Source: Octopus sinensis
Taxonomy: Eukaryota
NCBI RefSeq assembly: GCF_006345805.1
Contig: NC_042998.1
Location: 195,362,001 to 195,426,000 of the forward strand
Direction: 5' to 3'
Length of the DNA stretch: 64,000 nt
Position numbers and translations under genes: made by a program. Positions 36,241-59,398 of this stretch are shown piece by piece (position 1 is the first letter of the stretch; every line of letters begins with the position of its first letter). Below the pieces are notes generated by a model, which saw nothing but the letters and a program-made list of their open reading frames with translations, was not told the origin of the DNA and did not search any database.

Positions 36241-36811
36241 CATATTCGTTTTTCCTTTCCTCTTTTTGCTTTTCACTTGTTTCACTCATTAGACTGCGGC
36301 CATGCTGGAGCACCGCAATGAAGAATTTTCGTCGAACGAATCAACCCTAGTGCCTATTTCTTTATCTAAACTTGTTACATATTGTATCGGTGGCTGTTGT
36401 CGAACAGCTAGGTCACGAGGACGTAACCAAACCAACACGGATTGTCAAGCAGAGGTGGGGGACAAACGCGATGTGTTGTTATTCTTGAGCAAAACACTTT
36501 ATTTCAAGTTGCTCCAGTCCACTCGGCTGGGAAAAATGAGTAACCCCTGCGGCAGATCGATGTCCCGCCCAGGTGGGGAATGCATATACGCCACTGGAAC
36601 CAGGAAACAGCCCTTAGGAGCCTGCCATGACTCGAGAAGGAAACATTTCTTTTATATGCATAGACATACATACATATATATATATATGTGTGTGTGTGTA
36701 TGTATATATGTATATATATATGTTTTATATATACATATATATATATATGTATGATAAGTATCTCTCTCTCTATATATATATACTTTATTTAAAAGCAGCA
36801 GAAAATTCAAC

Positions 36812-36858
36812 AAAACCTGTTACTCTGAGTTTCACGTTCCCGTTCGTCGGACAGTTTT
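36812..36858 (-). ncRNA. Hammerhead-ribozyme-like motif (type I, CCGACGA core) in a ~135-bp (TA)n-flanked element
   Basis: Minus strand reads ctgt CCGACGA acg-ggaa-cgt GAAA ctc-a-gag TA acag, and all three stems pair. Confidence 0.65.
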
Positions 36859-37070
36859 TGCTAGTATTTGAGTACTCTTTTTTCCACCTTGTTTCACATT
36901 ATGTGTTTACTCCGGTATATATATATATATTATATATTAATATAATATACATATATTATATATATATGTATATGTAGTGATTATATATATATATATAATA
37001 TCTATATATATATATATTATATATTATATATATATATGTATATATATAGAGATAGATAGGAGATAGATAG

Positions 37071-37136
<66 letters not shown>

Positions 37137-37338
37137 TAGATATAGATATATATATGCATATATAAAATGCAAAATGGGACAAGAACGCAAAACATCTGGA
37201 TAGTTAGGTGATACAAAAATGGGACAACAAAACACCCAGATAGACGATACAAAGAAAACAAGGACGGGTCATTCGGAGTCTTCTTTCCTAAGTCAAATAC
37301 CAGATTATCTTCACAATTTCGGCTGAATGTATATACAT

Positions 37339-37502
37339 AGGCGCAGGAGTGGTTGTGTGGTAAGTAGCTGCTTACCAACCACATGGTTCCGGGTTCAGTC
37401 CTACTATGTGGCACCTTGGGCAAGTGTCTTCTACTATAGCCTCAGGCCGACCAAGTCATTATGAGTGAATTTGGTAGACAAAACTTGAAGCAGCCTGTCG
37501 TA
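37339..37502 (+). mobile_element. tRNA-derived SINE 5' part (same family as 52601-52998 +, 54700-55099 -, 48895-49106 -, 36255-36470 -)
   Basis: Head gtggctgtgtggtaag...ccacatggttccgggttcagtcc and shared tail aaaggcggtgctccagcatggcc..agtcaaatgactgaaacaagtaaaaga across copies. Confidence 0.8.
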
Positions 37503-37569
37503 TATATATATATTATATATTATATGTATATTGTGTGTGTGTGTGTGTGTGGTGTGTGTGTGTGTTTTG

Positions 37570-37609
<40 letters not shown>

Positions 37610-37726
37610 GTATTTATTCTATTCATTTATACTCATGACAATTTTATCCATACTCTTGATTTCTTTACTTTCCATACCCGCGAGCCTACACGCACGCACG
37701 CGCACGCACGCACACACACACGTACG

Positions 37727-37761
<35 letters not shown>

Positions 37762-38061
37762 CACACACACACACACAAGCACGCACGCAGATGCACACAG
37801 ACACACACGCAGAAAAAATGCAGCGAGGGAGAGAGGGAGAGAGAGAGAGAGAGGAAGAGAGAGAGAGCAGAAAATATATATAAATTATTTCTCCTATTCT
37901 CTAAATATACACATGCAGTTGGACAATATGGCCCACATATGGTTCACATACATATGCACGCATACAGATTAACATACACGAATGTATGTGTGTGTGTATG
38001 TGTGTGTGTGTGTCTGTGTGTGTGTGTGTCTGTGTGTGTGTGTGTGTGTGTGTGTTGTGTG

Positions 38062-38265
38062 TTGAAAAAAGTCATGATAGAAAATGTTCAAATAATTTTA
38101 TAAAAAACATTTCAGTACCGGTTTCAGTCATTGAGACTTTTTCAACTGTAAGTATGGAAAACAATTAAATTTTGGAAAAATTAAAAGAAAAGTTTTTTTA
38201 AAAGAATATTTGCATAGGTCCAAATACAAGGGGCATTTCTCTGCCTGTTCTCTCTCTCACTTGTT
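38062..38265 (-). mobile_element. Solo pseudo-LTR of a Penelope-like element with a hammerhead-like motif at 38113-38148
   Basis: The reverse complement aligns with the 3' end (43758-43981) of the Penelope-like element. Confidence 0.7.
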
Positions 38266-38367
38266 ATATATATTATATATATCTATATAATATATAATAT
38301 ATATACTATATATATATATATATTATATATATTATATATATTATATAATATATATATATATATATAT

Positions 38368-38680
38368 AGCAGCAATTAAGGAACGGCCATAATAGGCCGT
38401 TCAACCCACTAGAAATAACAGCCAAGGCTTCAACCGCAAAATAGTAGTAATTCCGTAAATCAGGAGAAAATTAAAAAAATTTTCTCCTGATTTACGGAAT
38501 TACTACTATTTTGTGGTTGAAGCCTTGGCCGGTGTTTTTTAGTGGGTTGAACGGCCTATTATGGCCGTTCCTTAATTTGCTGTTGAATTTATAAATAGTC
38601 TCTGACTATTTCCTTTTTCTCACTAGACCGCTGGTAGCAAAATAATTTCTGCTGTATTTTTTGCTACCCTATATTGATTA
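38368..38680 (+). repeat. ~105-bp-arm palindrome plus unpaired 3' tail, flanked by (TA)n
   Basis: 38368-38472 is the reverse complement of 38478-38584. The tail runs 38585-38680. Confidence 0.85.
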
Positions 38681-38955
38681 ATATATATATATATATATAG
38701 GAGTGCGTGCGAATACACACAAGCGCGCACACGCACACACACATACACACACACTCACAGGCATAAGCAAATTCATTTATCAAAGAAGCAAAATCGTAGG
38801 ACAGTATTGCTGTTTCAATACTTTGTATCTTATCAATGGTCGGAAACATGAAGGTTGACCCCCAATCCCCATATATAGAATGTATGTGCCTTTTATTGAG
38901 GTGTAGCTTCTCCATTTTCATTACCTTTCTGTCGTATATATATTATGTATATATA

Positions 38956-39002
<47 letters not shown>

Positions 39003-39030
39003 TATATTAATTATATATATATATATATAT

Positions 39031-40054
39031 ATATCAATGTGAGGATAAAATTCTTCTCGAAAAAAAATATTTTCTCCAAAAAATTTTATCAATGGCCAGC
39101 ATATTAAAAAATACCTTTAACGGTTAAATTTATAACAATTCATAAATGAGGGCAAAGGAAAAAAATTCTAATGCCAAATATGCCGAAAAAAATTGGACAT
39201 ATTGTCCATAACCATATAATTTTCACAATACGCACGCTACCCGAAAAAAGGTCGACAGAAATTTCTAAAAAATTCCATTATTCCATATCGGACCGATTTC
39301 AGAGTTAGCCCTAAGAGACCTCTCTTCGTCAGTGATACATGTGGCAAAAGAATAAATGAGATACTTACATTACCCATGGAAGAAGCAAATACTAAGTCAT
39401 GGGCACAACAAGTACCCCAAATAATCAAAATAGAAATACTCCAGCCATTCGAGGCACGTGCGATTTTGAACTGAGGCTCTCACAGAGTGAGTTAGTTAGT
39501 TCGGAAGTGAACGCTTAAATTTATATCAAATGTGAGGATAAAATTCTTCTCGAAAAATTTTTCATCAATGGCCAGCATATTAAAAAATACCTTTAACGGT
39601 TAAATTTATAAACAATTCATAAATGAGGGCAAAGGAGTATTTCTATTTTGGATGTATTTGGGGTACTTAGTTGTGCCCATGACTTAGTATTTGCTTCTTC
39701 CATGGGTATGAGTAAGTATCTCATTTATTTATTTTGCCACATGTATCACTGACGAAGAGAGGGCTCTTAGTAGCTAACTCTGAAATCGGTCCGATATGGT
39801 AATAATGGAATTTTTTAGAAATTTCTGTCGACCTTTTTTCGGGGTAGCGTGCGTATTGTGAAAAAATTATATGGTTAATGGACAAATGTCCAATTTTTCG
39901 GCATATTTGGCATTAGAATTTTTTTCCTTTGCCCTAATTTATGAATTGTTATAAATTTAACCGTCAAAGGTACTTTTTATATGCTGGCCATTGATAAAAT
40001 TTTTTTGAGAGAAAATTTTTTTTTCGAGAAGAATTTTATCCTCACATTTGATAT
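39031..40054. repeat. ~410-bp inverted repeat with a hammerhead-like motif in each arm and a composite spacer, flanked by (TA)n
   Basis: 39031-39442 pairs with 39634-40054. CTGACGA agag..ctct GAAA tcg GTC at 39743-39797 (+) and 39285-39338 (-). Confidence 0.85.
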
Positions 40055-40064
40055 ATATATAATA

Positions 40065-40131
<67 letters not shown>

Positions 40132-40265
40132 ATATTATATATATATATACATATATAATACATATATACATACATATATATATGTATATGTATTATATTA
40201 TGATATTATATATGTATTTATATATATATATATTATATATATAATATAAATATAAATATATATAG

Positions 40266-40330
<65 letters not shown>

Positions 40331-40664
40331 TAATATATGTATATATATATATATATTTCACACATACACACAGACATATGCACACGCACTCACACGCACG
40401 CACACACACATACACACAAATATACAGTGATCCAAAACAAGGAAAATAGGCTCCTCTTAAAGGGATGAAAACATCAAAGTTTTCGCTGGCTTAACTGTCT
40501 ACTACCCAATTTAGCAGGGAAAAAGTTTACAATTCACACGGTCATATATTAAATTTATAAAAATGAAAAGAAATGGAGATTGATAATTCAAAAATTTATT
40601 AACATATTATATTATATTCATATAATAATATAATATAACAAATAATAATTAATATTAAATACAA

Positions 40665-40745
40665 ATTACATACAATTGTTTCGATTCTTACCCATAGTAA
40701 AATTAAAAAATCCATATTTGTGGGTAAGAATCTCTTCAGTATAAT
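40665..40745 (-). ncRNA. Canonical type I hammerhead ribozyme motif
   Basis: Minus strand reads attata CTGAAGA gattcttaccca-(loop)-tgggtaagaatc GAAA caattg TA tgtaat: canonical core, 12-bp stem II, palindromic stem III, GUA triplet. Confidence 0.8.
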
Positions 40746-41523
40746 GTTTGATATATGAGGATACACAGATCCAAGAAAAGACTGAATTTAGATATGTTTG
40801 TTTTCAAGCGCCAGTATTTAAAAACAAAAACAAAGATTAAAAAAAATAAAATATGAAAAATAAAGTAATATAACGCTCGTGTTATATATTTGTATATTAT
40901 TAAAAATTTTAATCTAAATGTGTTTCTTATTTCGCCATTGTATTTTTTTTAAATATTGTTCCTAGTAATTTAAAAAACTAATGCGCTAAAATATATTTAG
41001 ATTAAAATTTTTAATAGTAAACAAATATATTTTACTAGCAGAAATACCCGGCGTTGCTAGGGATTGAAATGGCCTTGTTATTTTATTCTTATACTTGTTT
41101 CAGTCATTTGACTGTGGCCATGCTGAGAAACAGAGAATAAGAAAAGGAGAGAATCGGTTGAAAACTGCAGTTTTTAGAGAAAAACCCATGTAAAACACAT
41201 TTTTTTTTTCAAATTTCTCGCTTTACGCGAGAGCTCTGGGCAAAAAATTATACTACATGACCATCTTTGGCACATAAGTAATATGTGTGTAAAGTTTGGT
41301 GAAAATCGGTTGAAAATTGTAGAAATGCAAACATATTACACAGACATCCTTTGTTTTATGTATATAGATGACCGTTGTATTAGTTTTTTTTCATTTTATT
41401 TTTTATCGTTGTTTTTATTTTTAATTATTGACGCTCACGCTTGAAAACATAAACATATTTAAATTCAGTCTTTTCTTGGATCTGTAACTCTTCATATATC
41501 AAACATTACAATGAAGAGATTCT
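40727..41523. repeat. Diverged inverted repeat (40727-40930 vs 40990-41523), right arm split by a Helitron-like insert
   Basis: aagaatctcttca...cagatccaagaaaagactgaattta pairs with taaattcagtcttttcttggatctg...tgaagagattctt. Confidence 0.75.
41035..41368 (-). mobile_element. Non-autonomous Helitron-like element
   Basis: On the minus strand it reads A|TC...CTAG|T, with a subterminal GC hairpin (cccggcgttgctaggg) and no TSD. Confidence 0.6.
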
Positions 41524-42271
41524 TTTTTAGATACCCTCTTAAAACCATTCCTCAAGCATATCAAAAGCTACATAAAGGACAACCTAGATATGCTCAATCA
41601 CTACTAGTATCCTTCGATGTAGACAGCCTCTATTCTAATATTTCCCCCACAGCCTAGAAATAGAGGCAGTCCAATTCTGGCTAGAGAATTATTCCAATGA
41701 GCTCCCACGCCGCATCAAAAAAGAATTCGTAACAGAAGAGCTAAAATTCATCTTGGAGAATAACTTCTTCGTCTTCAAAGACAACTTCTATTGACAAAAA
41801 TCGGGGACTGCGATGGTTACGAGAATGGGCCCCCTCCTTTGCTAACCTAGTCATGGAATATTTAGAAATCAGTCTTTAACGTAAGGTATTTGAAAATACA
41901 GTAACCCATTCTCCCTCTACATAGAAAATAACTAGAAGAGACATGTAGATGACTGCTTCATTCTTTGGCATGAAAATATAGAGAGACTTAAAGAATTTCA
42001 AGCACTTCTAAAATGGACTTGACATAAGCATTCAATGTACGATGGAATATAGCCATCAATAACTTCCATTCTTCGATATCCTCATTAAGAAATCCAACAT
42101 CAAAATAGAAACAGATATATACTATAAGCCCACAGATACCAAGTAATATCTACCGTTCAACTCATGCCACCCTAGACACATTAGAATGAATATCCCATTC
42201 AACCTGACAAAAGGATTTGTACTATAGCTTCTAATACAAACACCAGGGATACACGACTACATAAACTAAAG

Positions 42272-42572
42272 TACAGGTTAAGAAAGTGGGCGTTGAGACG
42301 GTCCAGGTGGGCGCTGTGCCTAAGGGGGAGGTGGGGACTGTAGAGAAAAAGGAGGCGCTGGGAGGAAAGCAGTGGATTGGGGGACACTATGAATTTATTA
42401 TAATATTGTTATAGTATTGTATAAAAATTATATAATATTATATTAAATATCAAATGATTCATAGTATATATAAATTAGTAAAATGTAAAATATTTATTTA
42501 TACATAAAAATATGGGCGAGGCGCTGAGGGTAATATGAGGAGGCGGTGGCTCAAAAAGTTTGAGAACCTCTG
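42272..42572. mobile_element. hAT (Charlie-like) MITE nested in the Penelope ORF
   Basis: 8-bp TSD aactaaag at 42264-42271 and 42573-42580, with right end aagtttgagaacctctg. Confidence 0.75.
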
Positions 42573-43593
42573 AACTAAAGGATACACTCATCACCAGGAA
42601 CTACCCACCATTACTAGTTGATATAGGCTTTCAACGTGCCCGGCAACTCAGTATCCAAGAACTCAGACATCCCAAAACTAAAGGAGCATATACGCCCCAA
42701 ATCCCTGCCATACATATTCACACACAACCCCCTAAACAATAAAGCCTTCGACACCATCCTCCAGAACATTCCTCAACTAAAAATGGACCACATAATGAAT
42801 TTAAAACGTACACCATCATACATCAAACGTACACCATCATAAAAAGCAAAAGACAACCCAAATCTATGAAAAATTCCTAACACAAGTCCAAGTACACTCG
42901 TCAACAACACTGAAGCCGTCAGTAAAAATATGGGGAAGACCTAACTGTGGTAAATGCGTCAATCTAATTGAGGGATCGGAGTTCTCCTTCAAATGTTTTA
43001 CGGTGAAAAACAACTTCACACGTGTTTCGGAAAACCTATATATGTACTAACTTTCTCAGGGTGTCGAGAACAATACATAGGCCAAACCTAAAACAGTCTA
43101 CGCCAAACGATGACCCTACTTAGATCCCAGATTAAAATTCGAGAATACAGAAAAATAGCATTCAATGAACATACCAACATTTGCATTACTAATGAACAAC
43201 CCAACTTCAAAATTTTTCCCTCTATAAATTCAGGGAGGATGCACCTATTAACAGCGCATTTGCAAAGAGTCATATTTCATTACAAAATATAAACCTCTCT
43301 TGAATGCGTCCACCACAAATGACACTACTACAAGGGCCTTAGAATAATATCCACACAAATATTAAAAATGATATATTCAGAACAGTCACTACCCATGAAT
43401 TCATTCAAAACAATTCCAATCACTACTACTATAACCACAACAGGTCACTTGACTATTTAAGAAGACCCCACAAACAGCCTTTTACTGTCATACCACTCCC
43501 GTTTTTTCTTATTCTCTCTTTCTTCTTTTCCTACTCTATTCTTTTCTTCTTCTTCTTCTTCTTCTTCTTCTTCTTCTTCTTCTTCTTCTTCTT

Positions 43594-43624
<31 letters not shown>

Positions 43625-43892
43625 TTATTATTATTATTATTTTCTTTGACCGTCTCCTTCCTCGGCTACTACTGCTTAAACAATCAAAATCAAGAACCCA
43701 CGTCCATCATATTAAATATTTCTTCAGACCTGCTACTACCTATCTACCGAGCCTTCACACAAGTAAAAGAGAGACAGACAGAAAAAAGGAAAATGTCCCA
43801 AGTATTTGAAAACAATGGAAATATTTTAAAAAACATTTCATATAATTTCATATAATTTTTCCACAATTTAATTGTTTTTCGTACTTTGCTCT

Positions 43893-43928
43893 AAGTTGAA
43901 AAAGTCGCAAGGACTGAAACCGGTACTA
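43893..43928 (+). ncRNA. Hammerhead-like motif (UUGAAAA core) in the Penelope 3' pseudo-LTR
   Basis: ag TTGAAAA agtc-gcaag-gact GAAA ccgg TA ct. Confidence 0.6.
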
Positions 43929-44009
43929 AAATGTTCTTCATGATAAAATTATTTTAGCATTTTGTACTTGTCCTGTTTTCCTATATATATAGATATATAT
44001 AATATATAT

Positions 44010-44061
<52 letters not shown>

Positions 44062-44719
44062 ATATTATATATGTCAACTCGTGTGCTACTTTTCAACCTT
44101 CTACACACACACACACATATTCAGCTCGTCCCACGGTTCCGAGGATTAATTTCTCTGTGACGAATATTTGGACCATTAATAGCAGTGGTAAATGTGGCTA
44201 ACAAGTTCATTCATCGCGCAGAACACGCGATTGCATTGACCCCATTTAAAGGTCGGAGTCGCTCGCGGTGGCCGCTGTCAATTGTCTTTGTCTCTTTTCC
44301 TGTTTCTTGATTATTTCTTTTCAAACAACATTAGGTTATTGTTTTTGCTTTGTCAGTAGTTGGGACAGTTGGTTACAGTCATCTCAGAAGCCAGGTGGGT
44401 GAAACTAGCCTGCTTCACAGTTAACATTAGCTGATCTTTGTAGAGTTGAAGCGGGGCACCTCTGTCATATGTATGTTGCCAGTTTGCTGAAGAGGATTTG
44501 ATGGCGAATTCGTTCATCGTTCATTCTGGTGACATGGTGTTTGATGATTAGTGATTCCATGCTCTTTTCCATCAGTTATTGGAAACATAGTCAAGGGAGA
44601 TGTTCAAGAGAGAGCGAAGTATCAGTTGATGAAAGTGTTTGAATTTTTGATGTCACGACGACACAAAGTCCAAGTTTCACAAATATATAAAAGCGTGGAT
44701 ATGACGACTGCTTGGTAGA

Positions 44720-44870
44720 CCATAGTCAAAGAGGCTGATAAAGGAAGTGCAGTTGTCTTAATCGACACGGTATACTATATAACTCTAGAACTATCCATAT
44801 TAGAAGGCACAACATATGGAAAGGTCCAACGCTACAGTCAGCAGATAATAATGAAATTATTGACAGCTTG
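44720..44870 (+). mobile_element. Penelope-like RT N-terminal fragment
   Basis: Translates IVKEADKGSAVVLIDT, matching the PLE ADKG..VV motif. Confidence 0.55.
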
Positions 44871-44944
44871 TTGCATTTCTAAGCACGAGTGCCACGTTGT
44901 CATCAGCATCCTGGAGTTCTGAGATTCGTTTGATACTGGTGAGT

Positions 44945-45340
44945 TACTCTGACGGTCCCTATCTGAAAGATTTGGTTTTCTTCCGGAGTTTTGTTCCAAC
45001 GGGGAGGTTTTTCCTTCTTTCTCAAAGGCTGTCATTACTTTCGAGATGGTACTTCTTGATACACGAAACATTTCAGTTGTTTACGTTACTCTAGCGCATG
45101 ACATACGAACACCAACAATTTGACTTCTTTGAAAGGTCGATAGATCTGTCATTTTAATGAATTTTAATTTTTTTTTCAGATGATATCTGAAAAGAGACGG
45201 CAATTTTAGCAAAACATATTAAGCAACACTAATAATAAATAAAAAAACATAAAAATAAACAAGCTTTTGACGGTTTTATAGATATTTCAAAATTATGATG
45301 CTATGACGCTAGGTGTTTCCATTATTTTGTCCGACCCCTG
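44945..45340 (-). mobile_element. Tc1-like transposon left end with HTH fragment
   Basis: TA|caggggtcggacaaaataatggaaacacc terminus on the minus strand and the peptide VSRSTISKV...SGRKPNLSDRD. Confidence 0.75.
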
Positions 45341-45947
45341 TACATGTACAAACATATATTCATACATACATGCTATCAATAAAATACACAAAACCTATAT
45401 GTAAATTTTAATGCTTTAAAAAACATAAACGCGTTTCTAAAAATTAACTGGAAGGATTACACGACTTTGTTGAAAATTACATAATTGTATTGATTCATCT
45501 CGTCAAACACTGTTGCAAGGAATTAATAAGTTTATGTGATTTCGAATAAACAGTTGTGCAATCTTCCAAGTTAATTTGACGAAATGCGTGTATGTTTTAT
45601 AAAGCTGAAATACTAAACGTTTTCTTTATTCTATTAATATTAAACATTGTCTGTATTCCACACACTACCTTATCACGTTGTTGATACTACCCCTAATTGC
45701 GCTGGATATAGGAGAGGAATGTGGGACGTACTGCTGATTCTGAATTTTTGGTTACGTGTCGCGCTTTACAGCGCATATGTATTTATTTCTTTATTGCCTA
45801 CAGGGGTTAAACACAGAGAGGACAAACAAGGACAGACAAAGGGATTAAGCCGATTACATCGACCCCAGTGCGTAACTGATACATACTTAATCGACCCCGA
45901 AAGGATCACTCTCTCTCTCTCTCTCACTCAGTATATATATATATATA

Positions 45948-46144
45948 TAGGGAGAGTTCACGAAAAAAAAAAACAAAAGACGAAGACAGGTGGTGTACAA
46001 AACAAACAGATGTATTAGTATAACGCTCAGGAATTGAAAAAGTCTTTTACGTTTCGAGCCTACGCTCTTCTACAGAAAGGGACACAGAAAAAAGCAAGGA
46101 GAGAAAAAAATGTGTGTAGTGGCTACCGATCTACCGTGGCGACT
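45948..46144 (-). mobile_element. ~195-bp (TA)n-inserted element with a hammerhead-like motif (46044-46079), copy 1
   Basis: cttt CTGTAGA a gagc-gtag-gctc GAAA cg TA aaag. Homologous copies at 47430 and 59201. Confidence 0.75.
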
Positions 46145-47429
46145 AATAATATATATAGATATATAATATATATATATATATCACGTAGATTTCTACTATA
46201 TGGAACTTCAACAAATTGCAATTTTCAAGCATTATTCTTCATTATTTGATAAGCAATTCTATTTCCCTCGGTCTGCAAGCTGTATAACTTACGTATTGTC
46301 TGCCAATCTCTTCTCATGAGTGTGAAATGTTTCCAGTCATTATCGCCAAATTCTCAGGGACTTAAGGGCGTCCTTTGTGACGAAATAAAATTTCTTATTT
46401 GGCTGGCACAAGAGATGCCTACTAAGAGCCCGATAGAATAAGTACAAGGATTACAAAGAATAAATCCTGGGGTCGATTTGCTCTCGACTAAAGGCGGTGC
46501 TCCAGCATGGCCACAGTCAAATAACTGAAACAAGTAAAAGAGTAAAAGAGTACACATTAACTTGTGTTAGTTGAACTATGTTAAAATGTTAGAAAAAGAA
46601 ACCTAACTGATTCTTGCAATACATACCAATACATTCATCTAAAGCTAAATTTTTTCAGGACCCTTGAAATACTATTGCGAATTCCCTATTTACTCTTTTC
46701 TTACGAGGAGCCACAAAAAATCTTTTATGGACCCTCAGGGGCCATATGGACTCCGGTTGATAACTTCTGCTCCGTACAAATATGCTCTGTTTCCTAGTAA
46801 TGCTATTCATGTATATTATGTATATGTGTTAGTCTGGAGATTCTGGTTATTATTTCTTTGCATGCTTTCAATCATCCTCATTAAAGATTTTCTATTTTCA
46901 CCCCCAACTACCAGATTCTAGTTATCTCTATTTTCATATAATTATAGCTAATTAATTTCCTTATATCTTTTCGAGATACATCCATAAGGAGAGATTACTT
47001 TTCCTGATGGTTCTTGACGACAATATCTTCCAACTAACACTTAATCTCCTTGTCTGTGTAGATCGATTAATTTTACTGATCATTCTGTGATACCTTTTCT
47101 TGTGTATATTTATACCACTTCCCTTCCGTTGGTATTTCATAATGCTAGTACAACTTCTAGTATATATAAGTCCCATTTCTCTCTTATCTTCTTTGTTGGC
47201 GAAGACTAAGCTACCAGTGATAATGTGATAGTTTCTTCTCAACCTTAACATACACTTCAGTTTATTTATGCATTCTGGTTCATTATATAATTTTGGTGGG
47301 GTTTTTTCATGGTAAGACCTTCATTCAGTGCAGCAAACAAGAATTTCTTCATTTTTCGCTTTGAATTTTACACTATTCAAACAACATTCTGATATTTCTT
47401 ACATGCCTTCACGATATATATATATATAT

Positions 47430-47626
47430 TCGCCATGATAGATCGTTAGCCACTACACATTCTTTATTTTCTCTCCTTGTTTCTTTCTATGTTCCTTTCT
47501 GTAGAAGAGCGTAGGCTCGAAGCGTTAAAGACTTTTTCACTTCCCGAGCTTTATACTCATACATCTGTTTGTTATTTACACCACCTGGCTTCGTCTTTTG
47601 TTGTTTTTTTTGTGTGAATTCTCCCT
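47430..47626 (+). mobile_element. Same ~195-bp element, copy 2 (GAAA mutated to GAAG)
   Basis: Aligns end to end with the other two copies and is flanked by (TA)n. Confidence 0.75.
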
Positions 47627-47772: not shown

Positions 47773-47804
<32 letters not shown>

Positions 47805-48167: not shown

Positions 48168-48222
<55 letters not shown>

Positions 48223-48562: not shown

Positions 48563-48593
<31 letters not shown>

Positions 48594-49104: not shown

Positions 49105-49140
<36 letters not shown>

Positions 49141-49145
<5 letters not shown>

Positions 49146-49600
49146 TATAGAGACAAAACCACTATTTTGCAAAACAAACAAGGAAAGACTTAATCAATAT
49201 AATTATCTCCCTTTACGAAACACGCCAAGGCAACCATTAGGTTGTTCACTCTAAACATTCAAAATGCCACGACAAATATCAGAAATAAAGGAATTTTTGT
49301 TGACTGCGAGAAGGAAAGATGCAAAATCCGTAAAAATTAAGAAGAATCGGGATAATGTTAAATTCAAAGTTCGTTGTAGCCGCTTCTTGTATACACTGGT
49401 TATACATGACAGAGAAAAGGCTGACAAATTAAAGCAATCTTTACCACCAGGTTATTGATTAAGTCTTTCCTTGTTTGTTTTGCAAAAAATAGTGGTTTTG
49501 TCTCTATAATATTTATAATATTTTACTATAAAATTGGATTTTATCCTAAATCTGATTTTTTTCCCTGTAAATTTGGATTTATTCCCTAATATTATTATTA
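49141..49600 (+). mobile_element. Inverted-arm element enclosing the RPL38 copy (arms 49141-49199 and 49453-49513, tail to ~49600), in (TA)n
   Basis: The ~60-bp arms are exact reverse complements except for a 2-nt difference in an A run. Confidence 0.85.
49264..49458 (+). pseudogene. RPL38: 60S ribosomal protein L38 (eL38) intronless copy, C-terminally truncated retrocopy
   Basis: [63 protein letters not shown] is clearly eL38. It lacks the usual last ~7 residues, and the stop comes from the flanking repeat arm. Confidence 0.88.
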
Positions 49601-49627
49601 TATATATATATATATAATATATATAAC

Positions 49628-49666
<39 letters not shown>

Positions 49667-49840
49667 ATGTGTGTGTGTGTGTAAGACGAGTCTCTTTCAG
49701 TTTCCGTCTCTCGAACACACTCACAAGGCTTTGATCGGCTTGTGGCAATTGTGGGAGACACTTAACTTAGGTGCCACGCAGCCACTCCTGCGCCTCATAG
49801 TCACTCCTACACGCGCACACACACACACACACACACACAC

Positions 49841-49883
<43 letters not shown>

Positions 49884-49908
49884 ATAAGTATGCATGCATA
49901 TATACACA

Positions 49909-50523
49909 GGGCGGCAGAATTGTTAGCACGCCGTTCGAAATGCTTAGCGGCATTTCGTCCGTCTTTACTTTCTGAGTTCAAATGCTACCGAGGTCGTCTT
50001 TGCCGTTCATCCTTACGGGTTAGATAAAATAAATACCAGTTGAATACTGGGGTCGATGTAGTCGACTTATCCCCTCCCCCAAACTTGCTGGGTTTGTGCC
50101 AAAATTTGAAAATCGTTAGCACGTCGGTCGAGATGCTTAGCGGTATTTCGTCTGTCCCTACGTTCTGAGTCCCAATTCCGCCGTCGCCGACTTTGCCTTT
50201 CACCTTTTGGGGTCGATGAAATAAGTACCAGTTGCGTACTGGGGTCGATATAATCGACTAGGCCCCTACCTCTAAAATTTCAGGCATTGTGCTTATAATA
50301 AAAAGGATTATTCTTTTCAACTCTAGGCACAAGGCCCGAAATTTTGGAGGAGCGGGGCAATCAATTAGATCGACTCCAGTACGCAATTAGTACTGAATTT
50401 ATCGGCCCCAAAAGGTGAAAGTCAAAGTCGACCTCGGCGGAATTTGAACCCAGAACATAAAGACAGACGAAATACCGCTCAGCATTTCGCCCGGCGTGCT
50501 AACGTTTCTGCCAGCTCGCCGCC
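49909..50523. mobile_element. Cluster of tRNA-derived SINEs of another family (also 53365-53545 +, 54380-54611 -, 45780-45905 -)
   Basis: Shared ggcagaa.cgttagcacgccgggcgaaatgc...ctgagttcaaattccgccgaggtcgactttgcctttcatcc...gtaccagtt...ctggggtcgat. Confidence 0.8.
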
Positions 50524-50544
50524 TGTGAAACGGATTATTATTAT

Positions 50545-50582
<38 letters not shown>

Positions 50583-50650
50583 TTATTATTATTATTATTA
50601 TTATTACTACTACTACTACTACTACTATACTACTACTACTACTATTATTA

Positions 50651-50715
<65 letters not shown>

Positions 50716-51024
50716 ACACATACGCACGCACACAATATGGCAATAGCGTCACACAAAATGCATTGTTTGTATTTATTCGTTTACGCCATATTTCCACCTA
50801 AGACGAAGAAAGGAGGCCCCAGGATGCCAGGCAGAAGGCTTTACGTTATTACTTTGGCTCTCTGCTCTCTGAATTCTAATCCTTCGACGGTGATCTTTGT
50901 CTTTCATTTCCTCACGTTTGTGAAAAAGTACCAGTTCAAAGAAGCAGTACTTCGATGGCGTTTTGGCATTTATTTCAGCTATTAATCTTCTGAGTTCAAA
51001 TCCCGACTCCAGTCACAGTACAAA

Positions 51025-51113
<89 letters not shown>

Positions 51114-51121
51114 AATAATAA

Positions 51122-51695
51122 TAGATGCCCTGATGCAGTACCAGGCAGTGGCTCTCGTGGCTTCTGATCTTAACTTAATGGAAGTGTTATCATGTACATT
51201 GTTTTGCCTTGGTATAAAAGATGGGCTACAGCAAATATTCTACTCAATACCACAGATTTTTCTTGTCAGTTGTTTGACCGTAACCAGTTGAGCATGTCCC
51301 TTAGTGGCTGACGATATGTGCATCTCTGATCACGAGCAGAAGTAGTGGGGGAGCATCATAGCCATGTGTTGAAAGGAATTCTTAGAGGTTTGAATAATTC
51401 ACCTCTGGAAACATGGGTGTTTCGTTCAACATCCTTAAACAACCCTTATTCAAGGACTGTTTGAGCGGTATGGGTGACTAAACCAGAAGAAAATTCTTAC
51501 TGGGCCCCACCTGCAAGGTCATGTGCTGTTTATCTTGATATGAGATCACCATGACGCGCACATATGGTTGTGATGCATGTGCCTGGTGTACCTATTTATC
51601 AGACGGGTAGTCCTGATGGGTACCTGGGCTTCGTATATTTTATACCTTACCACCCCAGTGTCACTTTGATGGCATGCACTGCTCTCATCACTCAT
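51122..51695. mobile_element. Unclassified ~570-bp insert between (TAA)n tracts
   Basis: A block of balanced composition with (TAA)n on both sides and no recognisable ORF. Confidence 0.4.
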
Positions 51696-51750
51696 ATATA
51701 ATAATAATAATAAAATAATAATAATCTAATAATAATAATAATAATAATAA

Positions 51751-51987
51751 TTGCTCATGGGAACTGCTCATATCCTACGCAAAATATTTTCTATGTAATC
51801 TCGAGTTTTAAAACAAACATAATTTTCGTATTTTTTTTTGACATTCCCTAGTACAACACTAAATACAAACCAAAATATGGCACACTAGGCATAACAAACA
51901 CACACGAACTCCAACCTGTTGTCTCTTGAGGTCTCTAGGTTAGATTGGAGCCAACTTGTACAAATATAAAGCAAAGTCAAACATAGA

Positions 51988-51988
<1 letters not shown>
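51751..51988 (+). mobile_element. 3' end of an R4/Dong-like non-LTR element in (TAA)n
   Basis: LLMGTAHILRKIFSM* resembles the R4-clade C-terminus, and both flanks are (TAA)n, the known Dong target. Confidence 0.6.
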
Positions 51989-52052
<64 letters not shown>

Positions 52053-52600
52053 TTAAATAACTAAATAAATAAATAAATAAATAAATGAATAAATGAATAA
52101 ATAAAATGCCCTTCAGCGGAAAATGTTATAGGAAATATTTCAGCAAGCGTCGAAATATTTTAGCCTATCTCTTTATCTCTTTGCTGGAAGAAGAAAATGT
52201 AAAGGAATTTTTAAATCCAGACATTCATAGAAGAAAGTATGGGCGTGTGCGTGTACATATACATACATACATACATACATGCACACACGCATACATATAT
52301 ACATACATACACATACACATACGCGCGCGCGCGCACACACACACGGTTTGGCGAAAGCAAGCAGGAAATTTCAAAGTCGCCGGCCAATTCTACTTGTACG
52401 AAAGTTCAATAAACATGTACTCTACTAAAAGTTGTTGTTAAATTGTTTTATATTTGACTTGACATAGAAATATGCATAAATGTGTGCATGTGTGTGTGTA
52501 TGTGTGTGCGTGCGTGCGTTTGCGTGTGTATGTGCATTTGTGTGTATAAAGAGATCTATAGTTCTTAAAATTCTCTATTTAAAAGTCATTTTTTAAAATT

Positions 52601-52998
52601 CGTAGAAGTGGCTGTGTGGTGAGTAGATTGCTTACCAACTACATGGTTCTGGGTTCAGCCCCACTGCGTGGCACCTTCTACTATAGCTTCGGGCCGACCA
52701 AAGCCCTGTGAGTGGATTTGGTAGACGGAAACTGAAAGAAGCCCGTCGTATATATGTATATATATATGTGTGTGTGTGTGTGTGTATATGTTTGTGTGTC
52801 TGTGTTTGTCCTACCAACATCGCTTGACAACCGATGCTGGTGTGTTTACGTCCCCGTCACTTAGCGGTTCGGCGAAAGAGACCGATAGAATAAGTACTGG
52901 GCTTACAAAGAATAAGTACTGGGGTCGATTTTCTCGACTTAAAGGCGGTGCTCCAGCATGGCCGTAGTCAAATGACTGAAACAAGTAAAAGAGAGAGA
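52601..52998 (+). mobile_element. Near full-length tRNA-derived SINE with an internal microsatellite
   Basis: Head, (TA)(TG) middle and LINE-like tail. An inverted copy lies at 54700-55099. Confidence 0.8.
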
Positions 52999-55289
52999 GT
53001 ATTTCCAATAGCATAGAAAATAGAAAGTTGCTTATTGTTTCAGTTTCTTATTTTAAATATGATTTTTGCTTATTTAGATTTATAAGCTCCATATGTTGAG
53101 CGGCTGCATATTCTAATATTTAAATACATTTCGAATATTTTAAAAATTACGAGTGCGATTCGAGAATATTTTAGAAATATCGAATATCTTAAAGATTTAA
53201 ACAAATCTCAATGTAAAATAATTATTAGATTATTTTCCATCTAGCTTGGTATTTGAAACAGCATTTTAATATCTGAAGTAGAAGATTCCATAGCTTCAAG
53301 TTTCCAATATGTGTTGCCAATTTTATGTGAAATGTAATTACTTTCCTGTATTACTCCAAATTTTTCGTCTGCCGTTACGTTCTGAGTTCAAATTCCGCCG
53401 AGGTCGACTTTGCCTTTCATCATCCTTTCAGGTCGAGAAATTAAGTACAGTTACGCCCTGGGGTCGATGTAATCGGCTTATCCTTCCGTTTTATTTGTCC
53501 TTGTTTGTCCCCTCTGTGTTTAGCCCCTTGTGGTAGTAAAGCATAGGTATTACTCCGAATACAGGTAAATCATTTGAAATAAATTTTTACCATTAAAAAT
53601 GTGAAGCAATGCACGAATAAATCTTTACTATCTTTCTATTTGAATACGCCGTTTAAGTTTTTAAAGAACGAATTTTAAATGCGAAATTTTACTAACATAT
53701 TTCATTATCAGACAATTACAGCACAATGTTCAAGTTCAATTTCATACCGTGGTGCCTGTCGGGGAAAACGGCCCTTGGAAGATTATGTAAGCTGGAATAA
53801 TACCTTGCACATTCCAGTTCTTCGAACGAGATAGAGGGCCTCTTTGCCATCATTTTGTGTATCTGTTCATCATTGAATTTTCAGCATCATAGGCATAATC
53901 ACTCGATGAGCATGACAAAAACAAAACACGGTATCAAGCGCAACAAGCGTGGGGAAAAAAGCCCATATCGAGAGTTTAATTCTTTCCCATACAAACAATC
54001 GTTAGACTTCATTGAAAAATATTGTTCTCTACGTAATTGACAAGGATGTTGGACAGTGTGGAGAGCCAGATCCTGCGCAACTGAATTCGCAACTCTCAGT
54101 CGAGAGATTCTTTCGACATCCATGTCAAAACAAGGACTACATTTAGTACCCCACATAAAAAAAGGCTTATACAAAGATTAAGCAATAGATGGCATCTAAT
54201 TTGAGAGTAGTTTTCCTTGATGTTTCTTATGGAACAACAGAACATTTTTGATCAACCAAATTTTAGCAAAATTCGTTCACTAAGCAAAATGCTATTGTAG
54301 AAGAGGCCTGTTCGGGTGCTGCCTTAACTTTGCTCAAAGGTGGCAGTACTACACTGCTCATTGTGCGTTTAAGTTACCTATTTCTTTACTACTCACAAGG
54401 GGCTAAACACAGAGGGAACAAACAAGGACAGACAGACGGATTAAGTCGATTATATCGACCCCAGTGCGTAACTGGTACTTAATTTATCGACCCCGAAAGG
54501 ATGAAAGGCAAAGTCGACCTCGGCGGAATTTGAACTCAGAACGTAGCGGCAGACGAAATACGGCTACGCATTTCGCCCGGCGTGCTAACGTTTCTGCCAG
54601 CTTACCGCCTTCTGTGTTTAAGTTACCACTCACCCATATATACAGGGTTGTCCTGTATACTGTCATGTGATATTTATATATATATATACATACACACATA
54701 CTCTACTCTTTTACTTGTTTCAGTCATTTGACTGTGGCCATACTGGAGCACCGCCTTTAGTCGAGAAAATCGAACCCAGAGCTTATTCTTAGTAAGCCTA
54801 GTACTTATTCTATCGGTCTCTTTTGCCGAACTGCAAAGTTACGGGGACATAAATATACCAGCATTGGTTGTCAAGCGATGTTGGTGGGACAAACACAGAC
54901 ACACAATCATATACACATATATATATAAATATATATACGAAGGGCTTCTTTCAGTTTCCGTCTACCAAATCCACTCACAAGGCTTTGGTCAGCCCCAGGC
55001 TATAGTAGAAGACACTTACCCAAGGTGCCACGCAGTGGGACTGAACCCGGAACCATGTGGTTGGTAAGAAAGCTACTTACCTCACAGCCACTTCTGCGCT
55101 TAAAGTTGAATTTTTCCTTGTTTATATGATGTCTAAAACTTTTGAGATTGTACTTTAGGTTATTTTTAATCTTGTTATTTAAGGAAATATATCTTTGATT
55201 TACTGAATATATTTTCTTAGAATTTTAAATTCATGTGCAACATAAAACAGAAGCAGTTCTAATAGGAATGTGCTTTATTCACCACAAAT

Positions 55290-56300
55290 CCTTGAGGAAA
55301 CAGTATTTTTTATTCTGCGGTGTAGTGTTCTGATGGAAAGATAGCTACTTGGATCATCATCATGTGGACATGCAAAATAGAACTGACCGTGAAACAGAAT
55401 GGGTTTGTCAGTTTAACTGCAACAATCCTTAAGGAATGTCCATAAACCCTGTTCATTGTTGTAGAAGAAGACAATATCATTGGAAACTAAATGTGCTTGG
55501 ACTGAAAATAACATGTCCGACTGTTTGAAGAGATTAGGCGGAATAGAAACATCTTCCCTGATACAACCAGTCACAATGATGGCTTCATAAGAGTTTTGAC
55601 AGTTAATCAAGCACTTTTACTGAATTTTAGTGCACCCAAATTTCGTAGCAACCTTAAAGGTGCTCCTAACTTCAGCTGCAAAATATGTGGGGCATCATTA
55701 GTTTCTCTATCTTGGCAGCACCGTTAACGTCAACTACAGTGCAGTCTCCTGTACTGTGTAGATTGAATAAGGGCAGTGTTAATACCCTGCATAATGTCAC
55801 TTATGTGAGTTGATATGTCATGTTCACAAAGTTACTCATGGTTTCTATAATTCTGTGAGACGCCGGGATAAAGGTTCAAGAGCTTTCTTGAGATTGGTTG
55901 ATGGTCATTTTAAAAGTTTAGGCATCTTGATGTCACCACTCTCAGTGTCAACTGCGAGATGACAATTGTGTCAAATTCAGGTGAAAGATTTACAAACTGG
56001 ACAGTCGAGATATTTCTATTAAGTGCAGTTCACATGTTCGTAAAAAGATGTTGTCTTCTTGTCTCCAAATAAAGGACTCTTTGAGGCATGTTCTCAACAC
56101 ATCAGTAAATGTAACTTTGAAAGAGTTTGCATGAAATCAACAGAAAATAAGACTGTTACTTCACCCATGATATTAGTGTTAACTCTGAGACCTTGTATGG
56201 TGAGATCAGGATCTGCAAATGCAAGCCTTTGTAACATCGCGCATTCATCTCATACCGGACGTTCTTGCTGTCCAGATCTTAGCCAGTATTGCAATGCATG
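55290..56300 (-). mobile_element. Helitron Pif1-like helicase relic
   Basis: Minus-strand V*DECAML...IMGEVTVLFSVDFMQTL, GAPLRLLRNL, IVTGCIREDVSIP and FHGQFYFAC match Helitron helicase motifs in the expected order. Confidence 0.75.
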
Positions 56301-56483
56301 CATACTACATACATACATACATACATACATACATACATACATACATACATCCATACATACATACATACATACATACATACAAACATATATATACATACAT
56401 ATAATATATATACATACACATATATACATACATATATATACATATATATAGATATATATATATAGATATATATATACACAACA

Positions 56484-56518
<35 letters not shown>

Positions 56519-57424
56519 ATATATATAATATATATATTTATAAATAAGGATAATAATCGATCTTATCAAGTGACCAGCATAGGAATAAATACATACAAAT
56601 GTAATAATTATTTAAAACTATAAATTAGGGTATCTGAGAGATACCACCATGCTGAAACAGCAGTCAAAACCCTGACCCTAAAGCCACCTTAAATGTTCAT
56701 ATAGCGCTAGGAGAGAAGACAGAAAAGCAAAATAAACTAGCAAAAAAGATTTTTCTGGATAATTCAAAATCCTGGATTTCTGACTTTGCTTCAGAAAAGT
56801 TCTGCCTTCTTCAGTTGAATATATCAGATAAGGACATAAACACACACACATATATTATATATATATATATATATATACAGAACATACGTTATACTTACAT
56901 ATATATATATATATGTGATTTAACTTATATATTATATATATAGATATATATTTATTTATTTATACACACACACACACACACATATTATATATATATATAT
57001 ATATCGCATGGCTCCGTGGTTAGAGCGTCGAGCTTACGATCGTGAGGTTATGAGTTCGAATCCGGACTGGGCTGCGTGTTGTGTTCTTGAGCAAGACAAC
57101 TTTTTCACGTTTCTCGTCCAGTTCCCTCAGCTGTAGAATGAGTTGCGACGTCACAGTACCAAGCTGTATCGGCCCCTTTGCCTTTCCCTTGGATAACATC
57201 AGTGGCGTGGAGAGGGGAGGCCGGTATGCATGGGCGACTGCTGGTCTTCCATAAACAACCTTGCCCGGACTTTGTGCCTGTGAGGATAACTTTCTAGGTG
57301 CAAGTGAATGTGAAGAATATCATATGAAATATATTAGACTATGACATACATACATACATACATACATACATACATACATACATACATACATACATACATA
57401 CATACATACATACATACACACCAC

Positions 57425-57471
<47 letters not shown>

Positions 57472-57475
<4 letters not shown>

Positions 57476-57767
57476 CAATATGTTACATTACTCGGTAGTC
57501 AAAATAAAACTCTGAGTTTTCAGATGCCGAAGTGGAAATCCACAACACCATCTTTTCGGTTATCTGGCTATTTTCTGGTTATCTGATTATCTGGAAAATA
57601 GCCAGATAACCGAAGAGATGGTTTTGTGGATTTCCACTTCGGCATCTGAAACTCAGAGTTTTATTTTGACTACCGAGTAATGTAACATATTGTATAGATA
57701 AATTTCCTCTATTTACATAATATTGAGGTCTCTTTCTTTCTTTTGTTATCTTACCGTTTTATCAATT
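57472..57767 (+). repeat. ~104-bp-arm palindrome plus 3' tail in (TA)n, containing a hammerhead-like motif (57606-57664)
   Basis: 57472-57575 pairs with 57594-57696. Motif ataa CCGAAG agatg...catct GAAA ctc-a-gag TT ttat. Confidence 0.8.
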
Positions 57768-57791
57768 ATATATATATATATATATATATAT

Positions 57792-57999
57792 AGTTAATCC
57801 AAACAAGAAAACACAAAAAAAAAAACACAGCAACGCGAAGACGTGGAACAAATAAAGTATTATTGGACGCTCAGGAAAGAAGGGAAGAAGAAGGGTTTAA
57901 CGTTTCGAGCGGAGCTCTTCGTCGGAAACAAAGGAGAAGGAAAGATCCCGAGAAGGGAAGACAGAGGGAAAAAATTGCTGGCGGTGCTCACGAGGTCAC

Positions 58000-58003
<4 letters not shown>
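57792..58003 (-). mobile_element. ~210-bp (TA)n-inserted element with a hammerhead-like motif (57895-57929)
   Basis: Minus strand reads gttt CCGACGA a gagc-tcc-gctc GAAA cgt TA aac. Confidence 0.65.
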
Positions 58004-58039
<36 letters not shown>

Positions 58040-59053
58040 ATATATATATATAATTATTTGAGGGAATATTATTCCTAACTTACAGGGAAAAATTCAATTT
58101 AGAAATACTAAATCAAATTTCACAAAATATAATATATATATATATATATAAATTAGAAAAAAAAACACCTTTTATCAATTAAAAATGAGCAATTAAATTA
58201 CACCATCTAGAAAATTGCATATAATAAAAATATTAAAAATAAAACAACAATAATATACCAATGATTAAGTAAATTGCAAAATAATAATAAAAACGTATAT
58301 ATTAAAAGAAAGTCATTGCTGATAGTCAGGGATGTAGTCTCAATCGAAAGTTTAGTAAAGAAATATTCTTTTAATGAGAGGACTATAAGTAGAAAAATTA
58401 TAGAAAAAATTATAGAACTATAGCAAAAGACACAATGTAAAAGATATTTAAGAACATCTTAATCTGAAGTAACCATAAAGAATATGGGACTAGAGTAAAA
58501 GAGGTAAAGAAAAGGTTTAATATAAAAAAATAGTTGAGAAATCTTAATCAGAAGTAAACGCAACTAATGGTCTGATATGTAAAGCTTGATCACAGCTTAC
58601 GGTAATCGTAGTTAATATGTGTTGTAAAGAAAAGGTTTCCTAACGAGATGCGGGCACATTACAATAACCCCTTTCTAGTTCATAGTAGCGAGCACCTCAC
58701 TACAGTAGAGTGCATAGTACCTCACACCGCTAGTATGAGGCGCTGCGTGTTTGACAGTCGGTCAGGAGATTGAGTAATCTTTGCTTTGTGGTTTAGACTC
58801 CCATATAATCTTGGATAATGAAGTGAAATTAGCCTTGCTTTCATTCGGAAAATTATATACAGTACGTGGTTACTTCTCCTTTCCTCATTTAAATTATTAC
58901 TTTTATTATTCACTCTGCGGGTCTTATACTAAACCTGCTAGATCTTGCCATAGAGTTGTGTAGTACTCCCTTTATTTTCAATCAGTCTTACGAATCTCCT
59001 TTGATTTTTGGAATATTACGCTACCCACAATTATAATTACCCTCCCTCTCTCT

Positions 59054-59111
<58 letters not shown>

Positions 59112-59164
59112 TATATGTATGTATGTATATATATATATACACATACATCTATGTACATACACAC

Positions 59165-59200
<36 letters not shown>

Positions 59201-59204
<4 letters not shown>

Positions 59205-59398
59205 GCCATGATAGATCGGTAGCCACTACACACATTTTTTCTCTCCTTGTTTTTTCTGTGTCCCTTTCTGTAGAAGAGCGTAGGCTCGAAACGTAAAATA
59301 CTTTTTCTATTCTTGAGCGTTATACTAATACATCTATTTGTTTTGTACACCACCTGTCTTCGTCTTTTGTTGTTGTTTTTTTCGTGAACTCTCCCCTA
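59201..59398 (+). mobile_element. Same ~195-bp element, copy 3 (motif at 59264-59299)
   Basis: Aligns end to end and is flanked by (TA)n. Confidence 0.75.

Follow-up and report, generated by a model that had tools for sequence, protein, structure and literature searches.

Penelope-like elements (PLEs) are already known to carry hammerhead ribozymes, to occur with inverted arms and tails, and to favor microsatellites (PMC4209133, PMC8557442, PMC3846280). The hammerheads of metazoan PLEs have been described with U3-A8 cores, an extra base after A9, a palindromic helix III, and in opposite-strand pairs (Cervera & de la Pena 2014, PMC4209133); U4C has been noted as well, and A6C cleaves slowly (PMC3088659). 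PLEs also capture host genes, with the introns kept (PMC3846280, PMC6431247), and for the capture seen in Adineta vaga an antisense or unspliced template has been favored (PMC3846280). In vitro, a purified PLE protein has been seen to cut AT-rich DNA on both strands and to start reverse transcription at two sites, one at each end of the tail, and hammerhead cleavage was not needed for insertion (PMC11167929). How head-to-head arms form, and whether the template is sense or antisense, are open questions (PMC3846280, PMC8557442, PMC11167929). Here we compare with these systems a stretch of 64,000 nucleotides from Octopus sinensis (contig NC_042998.1, positions 195,362,001 to 195,426,000 of the forward strand; 'the window'), in which a group of PLE-like insertions includes one, at 49140-49598, that encloses an intron-free copy of the message for ribosomal protein RPL38 (eL38).

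A sequence-only reading of this DNA had proposed a diverse population of non-autonomous, PLE- or retrozyme-like elements that insert in TA microsatellites and can capture foreign RNA between their arms. The pattern is real at the level of the system, but mostly known, and the census of hammerheads is ordinary in kind. PLE origin, TA targeting and the geometry of inverted arms plus tail are supported, and 'non-autonomous' and foreign capture hold in part only. The new part is the RPL38 chimera, at one locus. A search of the open-access literature, subscription papers and supplements lying outside it, turned up no published case of a spliced mRNA within a PLE insertion, and none of PLE hammerheads in octopus.

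A spliced RPL38 message between inverted arms

The insertion, which we call E49, has three parts.

49140-49199, minus strand: left arm, an inverted copy of 49453-49514; adjoins (TA)n
49199-49452, plus strand: 5' part of an RPL38 (eL38) mRNA copy, 254 bp, intron-free, with its ATG at 49264
49453-49598, plus strand: right arm (49453-49514) and 84-nt tail (49515-49598), a very abundant repeat; adjoins (TA)n

The inverted arms measure 60 bp and, with the one-sided tail, give the element an arm-plus-tail geometry set in a microsatellite; it is on this geometry that a PLE origin of E49 rests. Between the arms, 49264-49455 encodes ribosomal protein eL38 minus its last residues (Pfam E 3.8e-35). The comparisons that follow draw on contigs of six sequencing runs out of 24 listed (X1, X2, X3, X6, X7 and X9); whether a run is RNA or DNA is a program's guess, X1 and X9 being of genome size. 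Family statistics are based on the 64-kb window and public contigs.

Contigs of X2, X3 and X6 start at 49211, behind a cDNA adapter, match the window through 49452, and then continue into the normal C-terminus; the long ones show 0 differences from the window copy. The parent gene, as seen in X1 and X9, has introns at 49248/9 (491 nt), 49266/7, 49327/8 and 49450/1. All three internal introns (3/3) are absent from the copy in the window, which has no base differences from the gene. Judged by the absence of the parent's introns, the insert is a processed retrocopy. It stops before the body of the last exon, and the poly(A) tail and target-site duplication (TSD) that would mark an L1-type copy are not found.

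The copy begins 11-12 nt upstream of 49211, the main 5' end of the message, at 49199-49200, and beyond the last exon border (49450/1) it extends by 2-3 nt, to 49452 if the template was mRNA or to 49453 if it retained the last intron. At each junction between arm and RPL38, 0-1 nt is shared, and the message runs in the sense direction toward the tail. We rejected the idea that 49200-49210 is filler and that the copy starts exactly at the cap: these bases match the gene upstream of its main 5' end. A spliced RPL38 contig of X7 also reaches upstream of 49199, by 761 nt, which may mean that transcription starts farther upstream or that a divergent transcript has been merged in.

The two arms break off at one and the same position of their family, to within 1 nt (loose ends 49199 and 49453), and the family runs on upstream from there; in other copies the repeat extends inward. 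Summed depth in X1 and X9 is 1e4-1e6 for arm plus tail versus ~7-130 for the RPL38 part, and although depth is not copy number, the arm/tail family must therefore be very abundant. Exon-joined contigs occur in both of these runs, at depth 7 in X1 and 19 in X9 (gene 49-60), and none of them enters the last exon, as expected of a truncated copy. Contig joints that lead from a short inverted arm into the tail (49172/49177 to 49512/49514) would suit priming at two sites, but as their sides are 23 letters long we give them no weight as support. Exact-pattern scans of metagenomes and prokaryote genomes for the arm and tail gave 0 matches.

Capture of foreign RNA is strongly borne out at E49, then, by the spliced RPL38. 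Two further candidates fall away: the middle of 39036-40050 is in part a tandem repeat of the element's own end, and the insert of 40420-41524 looks like a later DNA transposon.

The surrounding elements and their hammerheads

The first half of the window carries C2H2 zinc-finger arrays and LINE (long interspersed nuclear element) open reading frames (ORFs), and the second half microsatellite-rich repeats, among which PLE coding sequence and a copy derived from it can be recognized.

41521-43980, plus strand: PLE, 5'-truncated and frameshifted; reverse transcriptase (RT), thumb, CX2-5CxxC-type linker and GIY-YIG in 41521-43308, then 3' untranslated region (UTR); ends in (TA)n
44713-44874, plus strand: remnant of a second PLE RT, N-terminal part (iE 3e-7)
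38063-38262, minus strand: E2, a 5'-truncated copy of the 3' end of PLE 41521-43980, with a U3-A8 hammerhead at 38145-38116; one end in (TG)n, the opposite end in (TA)n

Pfam finds 0 families in three single frames of the broken PLE, and its identity came from homologs. When the frame of 41521-43308 is read with X at the stops it has 32 protein homologs, many of them with RT, GIY-YIG and PF26215, and these map back onto the window over profile positions 254-752 of 752. The CX2-5CxxC linker is present in all 10 of the homologs inspected; the window copy aligns there with its first cysteine replaced. To judge from these similarities, the element is an endonuclease-bearing (EN+) PLE with a linker of the type shared by Neptune and Nematis, and may belong with either. 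Its 3' UTR holds a U3-A8 hammerhead at 43896-43925, which bears out the earlier observation of a motif in the 3' end of an element with RT and GIY-YIG, and its 3' end lies 2 nt from (TA)n. The PLE ORF is interrupted at 42272-42572 by an insert flanked by 8-bp direct repeats (42264-42271, 42573-42580), one end of which, we assume, resembles a hAT terminal repeat.

E2 aligns with the final 220 bp of this PLE. Since it is a short copy of an autonomous element, many of the mini-elements may be mere truncated copies. Linkage of hammerhead families to autonomous PLEs is thus secured for one family, that of E2 and PLE 41521-43980, and the other families are without an ORF link; a search near 58 kb found no PLE protein remnant. 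As a description of the population, 'non-autonomous' is borne out for the 493-nt unit at 39036-40050 only, E2 being a truncated autonomous PLE. The remaining elements are these.

36783-36916, minus strand: E1, a fragment of 134 bp with a (TA)n tract on each side; its U4C hammerhead has its core at 36850 and 36821 as cleavage base
38370-38680, strand not assigned: E3, head-to-head arms 38370-38472 and 38478-38582, 5-nt spacer, 98-nt tail; (TA)n on both sides
39036-39635, minus strand: E4, main copy; 493-nt unit 39036-39528 with, ahead of it, 107 nt that repeat its own 3' end; canonical hammerhead 39332-39286
39634-40050, plus strand: E4, inverted 5'-truncated copy; canonical hammerhead 39749-39796
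40420-40957, minus strand: E5, left copy, its outer end approximate; canonical hammerhead 40739-40671, in which helix II has 12 bp
40958-41524, plus strand: E5, inverted arm, interrupted at 41031-41369; ends inside its own hammerhead (41511) at the RT remnant
45950-46145, minus strand: C1, a 195-bp element; A6U hammerhead 46075-46048
47428-47625, plus strand: C2, of family C, with the same ends as C1; hammerhead at 47499 with GAAG, likely dead
56540-56850, minus strand: E56, with a degenerate hammerhead 56814-56768; absent from the earlier reading
57476-57766, plus strand: E10, arms 57476-57575 and 57594-57692, tail of 74 nt; U4C hammerhead 57610-57660 with an extra U; damaged twin at 57559
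57793-57991, minus strand: E9, a relative of family C; U4C hammerhead 57925-57899
58053-58330, minus strand: relative of the E49 tail family; ends at (TA)n; score 102, 0/500 shuffles as high
59202-59397, plus strand: C3, a 195-bp element; A6U hammerhead 59268-59295

Five elements had been credited with inverted arms and three of them with a one-sided tail, and both counts are right: the five lie at 38370-38680, 39036-40050, ~40420-41524, 49140-49598 and 57476-57766, and the tails measure 98 nt in E3, 84 nt in E49 and 74 nt in E10. The arms of E3, E5 and E10 are ~5-18 nt apart. In E10 it is the more intact hammerhead that points toward the tail; the other two tailed elements (38370 and 49140; 2/3) have no hammerhead in any order of its blocks. 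E3 accordingly combines PLE geometry with the lack of this motif; two hairpins lie in its tail and a third in its arm.

E4 consists of 1.2 units, that is, a partial tandem with one hammerhead, plus an inverted copy. Its 493-nt unit is non-coding (longest ATG ORF 46 aa) and folds better than 100/100 shuffles (z -4.8); to all appearances E4 is a textbook PLE layout without the ORF. Foreign capture here was considered and rejected: 107 of the 191 spacer nucleotides repeat the element's own 3' end, and the other 86 nt read as the 5' part of the unit. The right arm of E5 is fused to the PLE RT remnant, which belongs to a different sequence family, and the fusion at 41521-41525 may have arisen by deletion or by a jump between two PLE RNAs. 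The insert at 41031-41369 looks like a later DNA transposon, with ends that we take to be like those of non-autonomous Helitron/DINE-1 elements. A piece resembling a short interspersed nuclear element (SINE) lies within it at 41078-41125. The three 195-bp copies of family C share an identical pair of ends, and may represent either a defined non-autonomous unit or a parent in which an internal (TA)n fixes the point of truncation.

Near the 3' ends of three elements lies a common motif of 18-19 nt (40505-40523, 49559-49576 and 58074-58091), the pattern having been picked after the sites were seen. Possibly it is a common recognition signal.

A tract of (TA)>=4 lies no more than 5 nt from 11 of the 13 ends whose position is set by homology among copies or arms; for other repeats the figure is 3 of 28 ends (Fisher p 7e-6, a generous value because alignments stop at masked simple repeats and several ends share one insertion). 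The plain distance from motif to TA is not significant (median 105 vs 221 nt, P=0.085), and with 93 TA tracts in 24 kb such closeness is uninformative. That (TA)n lies next to nearly all motifs therefore applies to the ends of the elements; it does not carry over to the motifs themselves, and the element at 38113 has (TG)n on one side.

The reading had also counted at least eleven hammerhead-like motifs, and a type I fold is indeed found at 11/11 of the positions it named. A scan admitting core variants, which it had suggested, was run over the whole 64-kb window with a type I descriptor allowing at most 2 core deviations. It matched 8 of those 11, with no additional match anywhere in the 64 kb; in 30 block-wise dinucleotide shuffles of 36-60 kb the mean was 0.1 match and the maximum 1. 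The 41 kb outside the motif-rich region gave no match, and the density within ~23 kb is that of a chosen region. The three motifs missed are damaged or carry an extra base: 43893 has a helix I of just 2 bp followed by a mismatch, 47495 has GAAG in place of GAAA, and 57606 has an extra U ahead of GAAA and was recovered by the block-order scan. The eleven motifs amount to ten insertions, 39285 and 39743 being the two arms of one. Besides these, and not named in the earlier reading, there are a degenerate twelfth (core 56814, minus strand), the damaged twin at 57559 in the left arm of E10, and the truncated twin at 41511.

By core, three of the 11 are canonical (CUGANGA / GAAA / UH; 39285, 39743, 40665), two are U3-A8 (38113, 43893), three are U4C (36812, 57606, 57895), and three have A6U with an extra A after A9 (46044, 47495, 59264). 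Helix III is fully palindromic in 11/11, in five different sequences; helix II is fully paired in 11/11, and helix I has at least 3 bp in 10/11. Between family C and E9 one compensatory pair has been swapped in helix I (2-3 copies per family in the window), and in both family pairs the loops vary and helix II is kept. By sequence, the motifs appear to have the core of PLE-type minimal type I hammerheads, the three A6U ones doubtfully so. The claim of non-canonical cores is sound for 8/11 as regards the variants themselves; U3-A8, the extra base after A9, and U4C have all been described, and for A6U, common to 3/3 family C copies, any activity is putative. A survey of PLE hammerhead variants (Lunse et al. 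2017) may already describe A6U and U-before-GAAA. In folding predictions, a homodimer gains 4.6-11.6 kcal/mol in stability over two monomers for 6/6 motifs tested, and a dimer with two helices II and an intermolecular helix III is the predicted minimum for 2/6.

Searches in other directions were negative. Rfam gives no hammerhead among 143 matches at E<=10, which are mostly microsatellite and hairpin noise. Permuted hammerheads, with blocks in another order (as defined in PMC10085705), are absent from 35.5-60.5 kb, where 6/6 hits scoring >=8 have the order CGS, and none were found in E3, E49 or at 58 kb. An exact-pattern scan of viral contigs for the family C hammerhead gave 0 matches, and there is no tRNA gene in 36-60 kb.

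Elsewhere in the window, a long duplication at 1432-31000 takes in a C2H2 zinc-finger array with neighboring LINE ORFs; one copy (3830-6520) has an open RT frame of 896 aa, a large part of which is missing from the second. Two SINE-like copies lie head to head at 50111-50507 as a 400-bp palindrome (80% identity), and two older, imperfect palindromes (45374-45639 and 59414-59510; arm identity ~71-73%) are without TA flanks or hammerheads. At 59682-60440 there is, presumably, a broken mariner-like transposase, recognized by eye.

How E49 may have formed

It seems probable to us that the elements are 3'-end insertions made by PLE enzymes into (TA)n, and that at 49140-49598 the enzyme jumped from element RNA to RPL38 mRNA. 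The endonuclease would nick both strands within (TA)n. One target strand would then prime at a distal start site, yielding arm plus tail, and the other at an internal site, yielding the arm only. Both cDNAs would usually stop at the same point on the RNA—its broken 5' end—and be joined head to head. At E49, synthesis of the tail-side cDNA would have carried on along an RPL38 RNA, either spliced or still with its last intron, nearly as far as the 5' end of that RNA, and the joining would have come after. Such a jump requires RPL38 to be in the sense direction toward the tail, and the equal arm ends and the sense orientation fit it; as the copy ends 2-3 nt beyond a splice donor, its template may have been nuclear and incompletely spliced. 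We considered and rejected a simple snap-back of the RPL38 cDNA at its end, as it would duplicate RPL38, whereas it is the arm that is duplicated. The mini-elements would be a mix of truncated copies of autonomous PLEs, such as E2, and non-coding units moved in trans, such as E4 and perhaps family C; their hammerheads would cleave, if at all, as dimers via the palindromic helix III.

Several points count against this account. No contig spans a junction between arm and RPL38 among the contigs listed for the six runs. In X1 the depth of exon 3 is doubled (17) but that of the exon-4 contig is not (6.9), an unexplained difference, and one genome-sized run may be the source of the window itself. 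E49 has no hammerhead, and its arm family shows neither a hammerhead nor an ORF in the sequence covered, which extends 30 nt upstream. Its link to E5 is one 18-nt motif picked post hoc, the whole alignment being matched by 133/500 shuffles. The arms of E4 are offset by 191 nt, so that a shared stop is not universal. One of ~7 hammerhead families is linked to an ORF; 8/11 cores are non-canonical and at least two look dead, and self-cleavage is a prediction from folds. Sense orientation in a single case has a 50% probability by chance.

Equal arm ends, moreover, are also expected from a pre-existing palindrome, and this leads to the alternative that survives best: a PLE-type palindrome formed first, and a later break at its apex was patched with RPL38 cDNA made by a LINE RT or a repair polymerase, the rest being PLE debris. 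E3, E5 and E10 are palindromes of this kind, with spacers of ~5-18 nt; LINE ORFs are present in the window; and the lack of poly(A), together with junctions that overlap by 0-1 nt, is in keeping with class-2 templated insertions (PMC5110952). The break would, however, have to lose equal sequence, or none, on both sides, and the insert happens to be in sense toward the tail. Divergence is close to nil in the arms and in the insert alike, as one event predicts. On balance we consider two steps unlikely, though not negligibly so.

Much less likely is that the chimera arose at the level of RNA, with exons 1-4 of RPL38 ligated or trans-spliced to element RNA, which the PLE machinery then inserted. 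The copy does end 2-3 nt past a splice donor, and human L1/mRNA chimeras, most of them in sense, include first exons and frequently have their ends at splice sites (10.1101/2025.02.02.635956). But the family sequence just upstream of the junction offers no AG acceptor, which makes trans-splicing unlikely, and is not a hammerhead cut site; two bases beyond the donor are retained; and from a continuous chimeric RNA one would not expect the left arm to end, as it does, precisely at the junction. We would set equally little store by E49 as a miniature inverted-repeat transposable element (MITE) or a Pack-TIR-like DNA element with 60-bp terminal inverted repeats (TIRs) at a TA site, or as an assembly chimera: the inverted ends do lie beside TA, the hammerhead and junction-spanning contig are missing, and homopolymer indels are frequent between arms in the window, but the repeat runs 84 nt past the right arm, on one side only, and inward in other copies, as terminal repeats do not, capture at the level of DNA would retain introns, and exon-joined forms occur in genome-sized runs. 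Published work on Pack-TIRs excluded intronless inserts (PMC8277862).

From a template jump at E49 one might generalize that PLE RTs make processed pseudogenes by jumping from the end of their own RNA to host mRNA, and that chimeras of this kind record the reaction, in which a single sense RNA serves as template twice, each time from a different start site, on opposing strands of the target. This we offer tentatively, as a possibility that does not yet quite persuade us. An mRNA can be copied in one direction only, and a spliced message between the arms thus fixes the direction of synthesis. If the generalization is true, PLEs provide a third route to retrocopies, beside L1 and long terminal repeat (LTR) elements, and head-to-head arms form without any need for an antisense template that primes itself. 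Across a genome, the orientations and junctions of such loci would by their statistics alone put the models to the test. PLEs are known for intron retention, and intronless copies would alter the attribution of retrocopies in PLE-rich animals.

Comparison with known systems

The hammerheads of the window resemble those of PLEs described in PMC4209133 in being of type I, with a palindromic helix III, an extra base between 9 and 10.1, and U3-A8 covariation. The resemblance extends to their arrangement, with mostly single motifs from truncated PLEs, opposite-strand pairs 100-700 bp apart, and many families per genome. They differ in that several have A10.1-U11.1 rather than G-C, and the A6U and U-before-GAAA variants are, in the accessible parts of that paper, without counterpart.

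PLE 41521-43980 is like the EN+ PLEs Neptune and Nematis (Craig et al. 2021, PMC8557442) in having RT, then a C-terminal GIY-YIG, with a CX2-5CxxC-type linker. Partial tandems, an inverted 5'-truncated copy, a one-sided tail and a bias toward microsatellites are likewise features of the PLEs described there. The ORF in the window, unlike theirs, is broken and 5'-truncated, and the tails are longer, 74-98 nt versus 30-40 nt. E4, as a non-coding, self-paired unit of 493 nt with a type I hammerhead, recalls the non-LTR retrozymes of metazoa (PMC7229834; 10.64898/2026.07.22.740005), whose derivation from PLEs has been suggested (PMC7229834) and argued for (bioRxiv 10.64898/2026.07.22.740005). It departs from them at this locus in having 1.2 units and an inverted copy instead of two complete tandem hammerhead units.

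Partial spliced mRNAs within retroelement insertions, with sense bias and with template switching proposed, are found among LTR-mediated retrocopies (PMC5131818) and 5' chimeras of L1 and mRNA (10.1101/2025.02.02.635956), and E49 resembles both. The enzymes are different ones, however, and E49 is flanked by inverted arms and a tail in (TA)n, shares 0-1 nt at its junctions, and has no poly(A) and no separable TSD. Closest in kind is the capture of a gene by PLEs in A. vaga (Arkhipova et al. 2013, PMC3846280), where host sequence is likewise framed by PLE repeats and template jumps have been proposed. In A. vaga the captured gene retains all of its introns and lies between direct pseudo-LTRs (pLTRs), with a TSD, whereas the insert of E49 is spliced, lies between inverted arms, and runs in the sense direction toward the tail.

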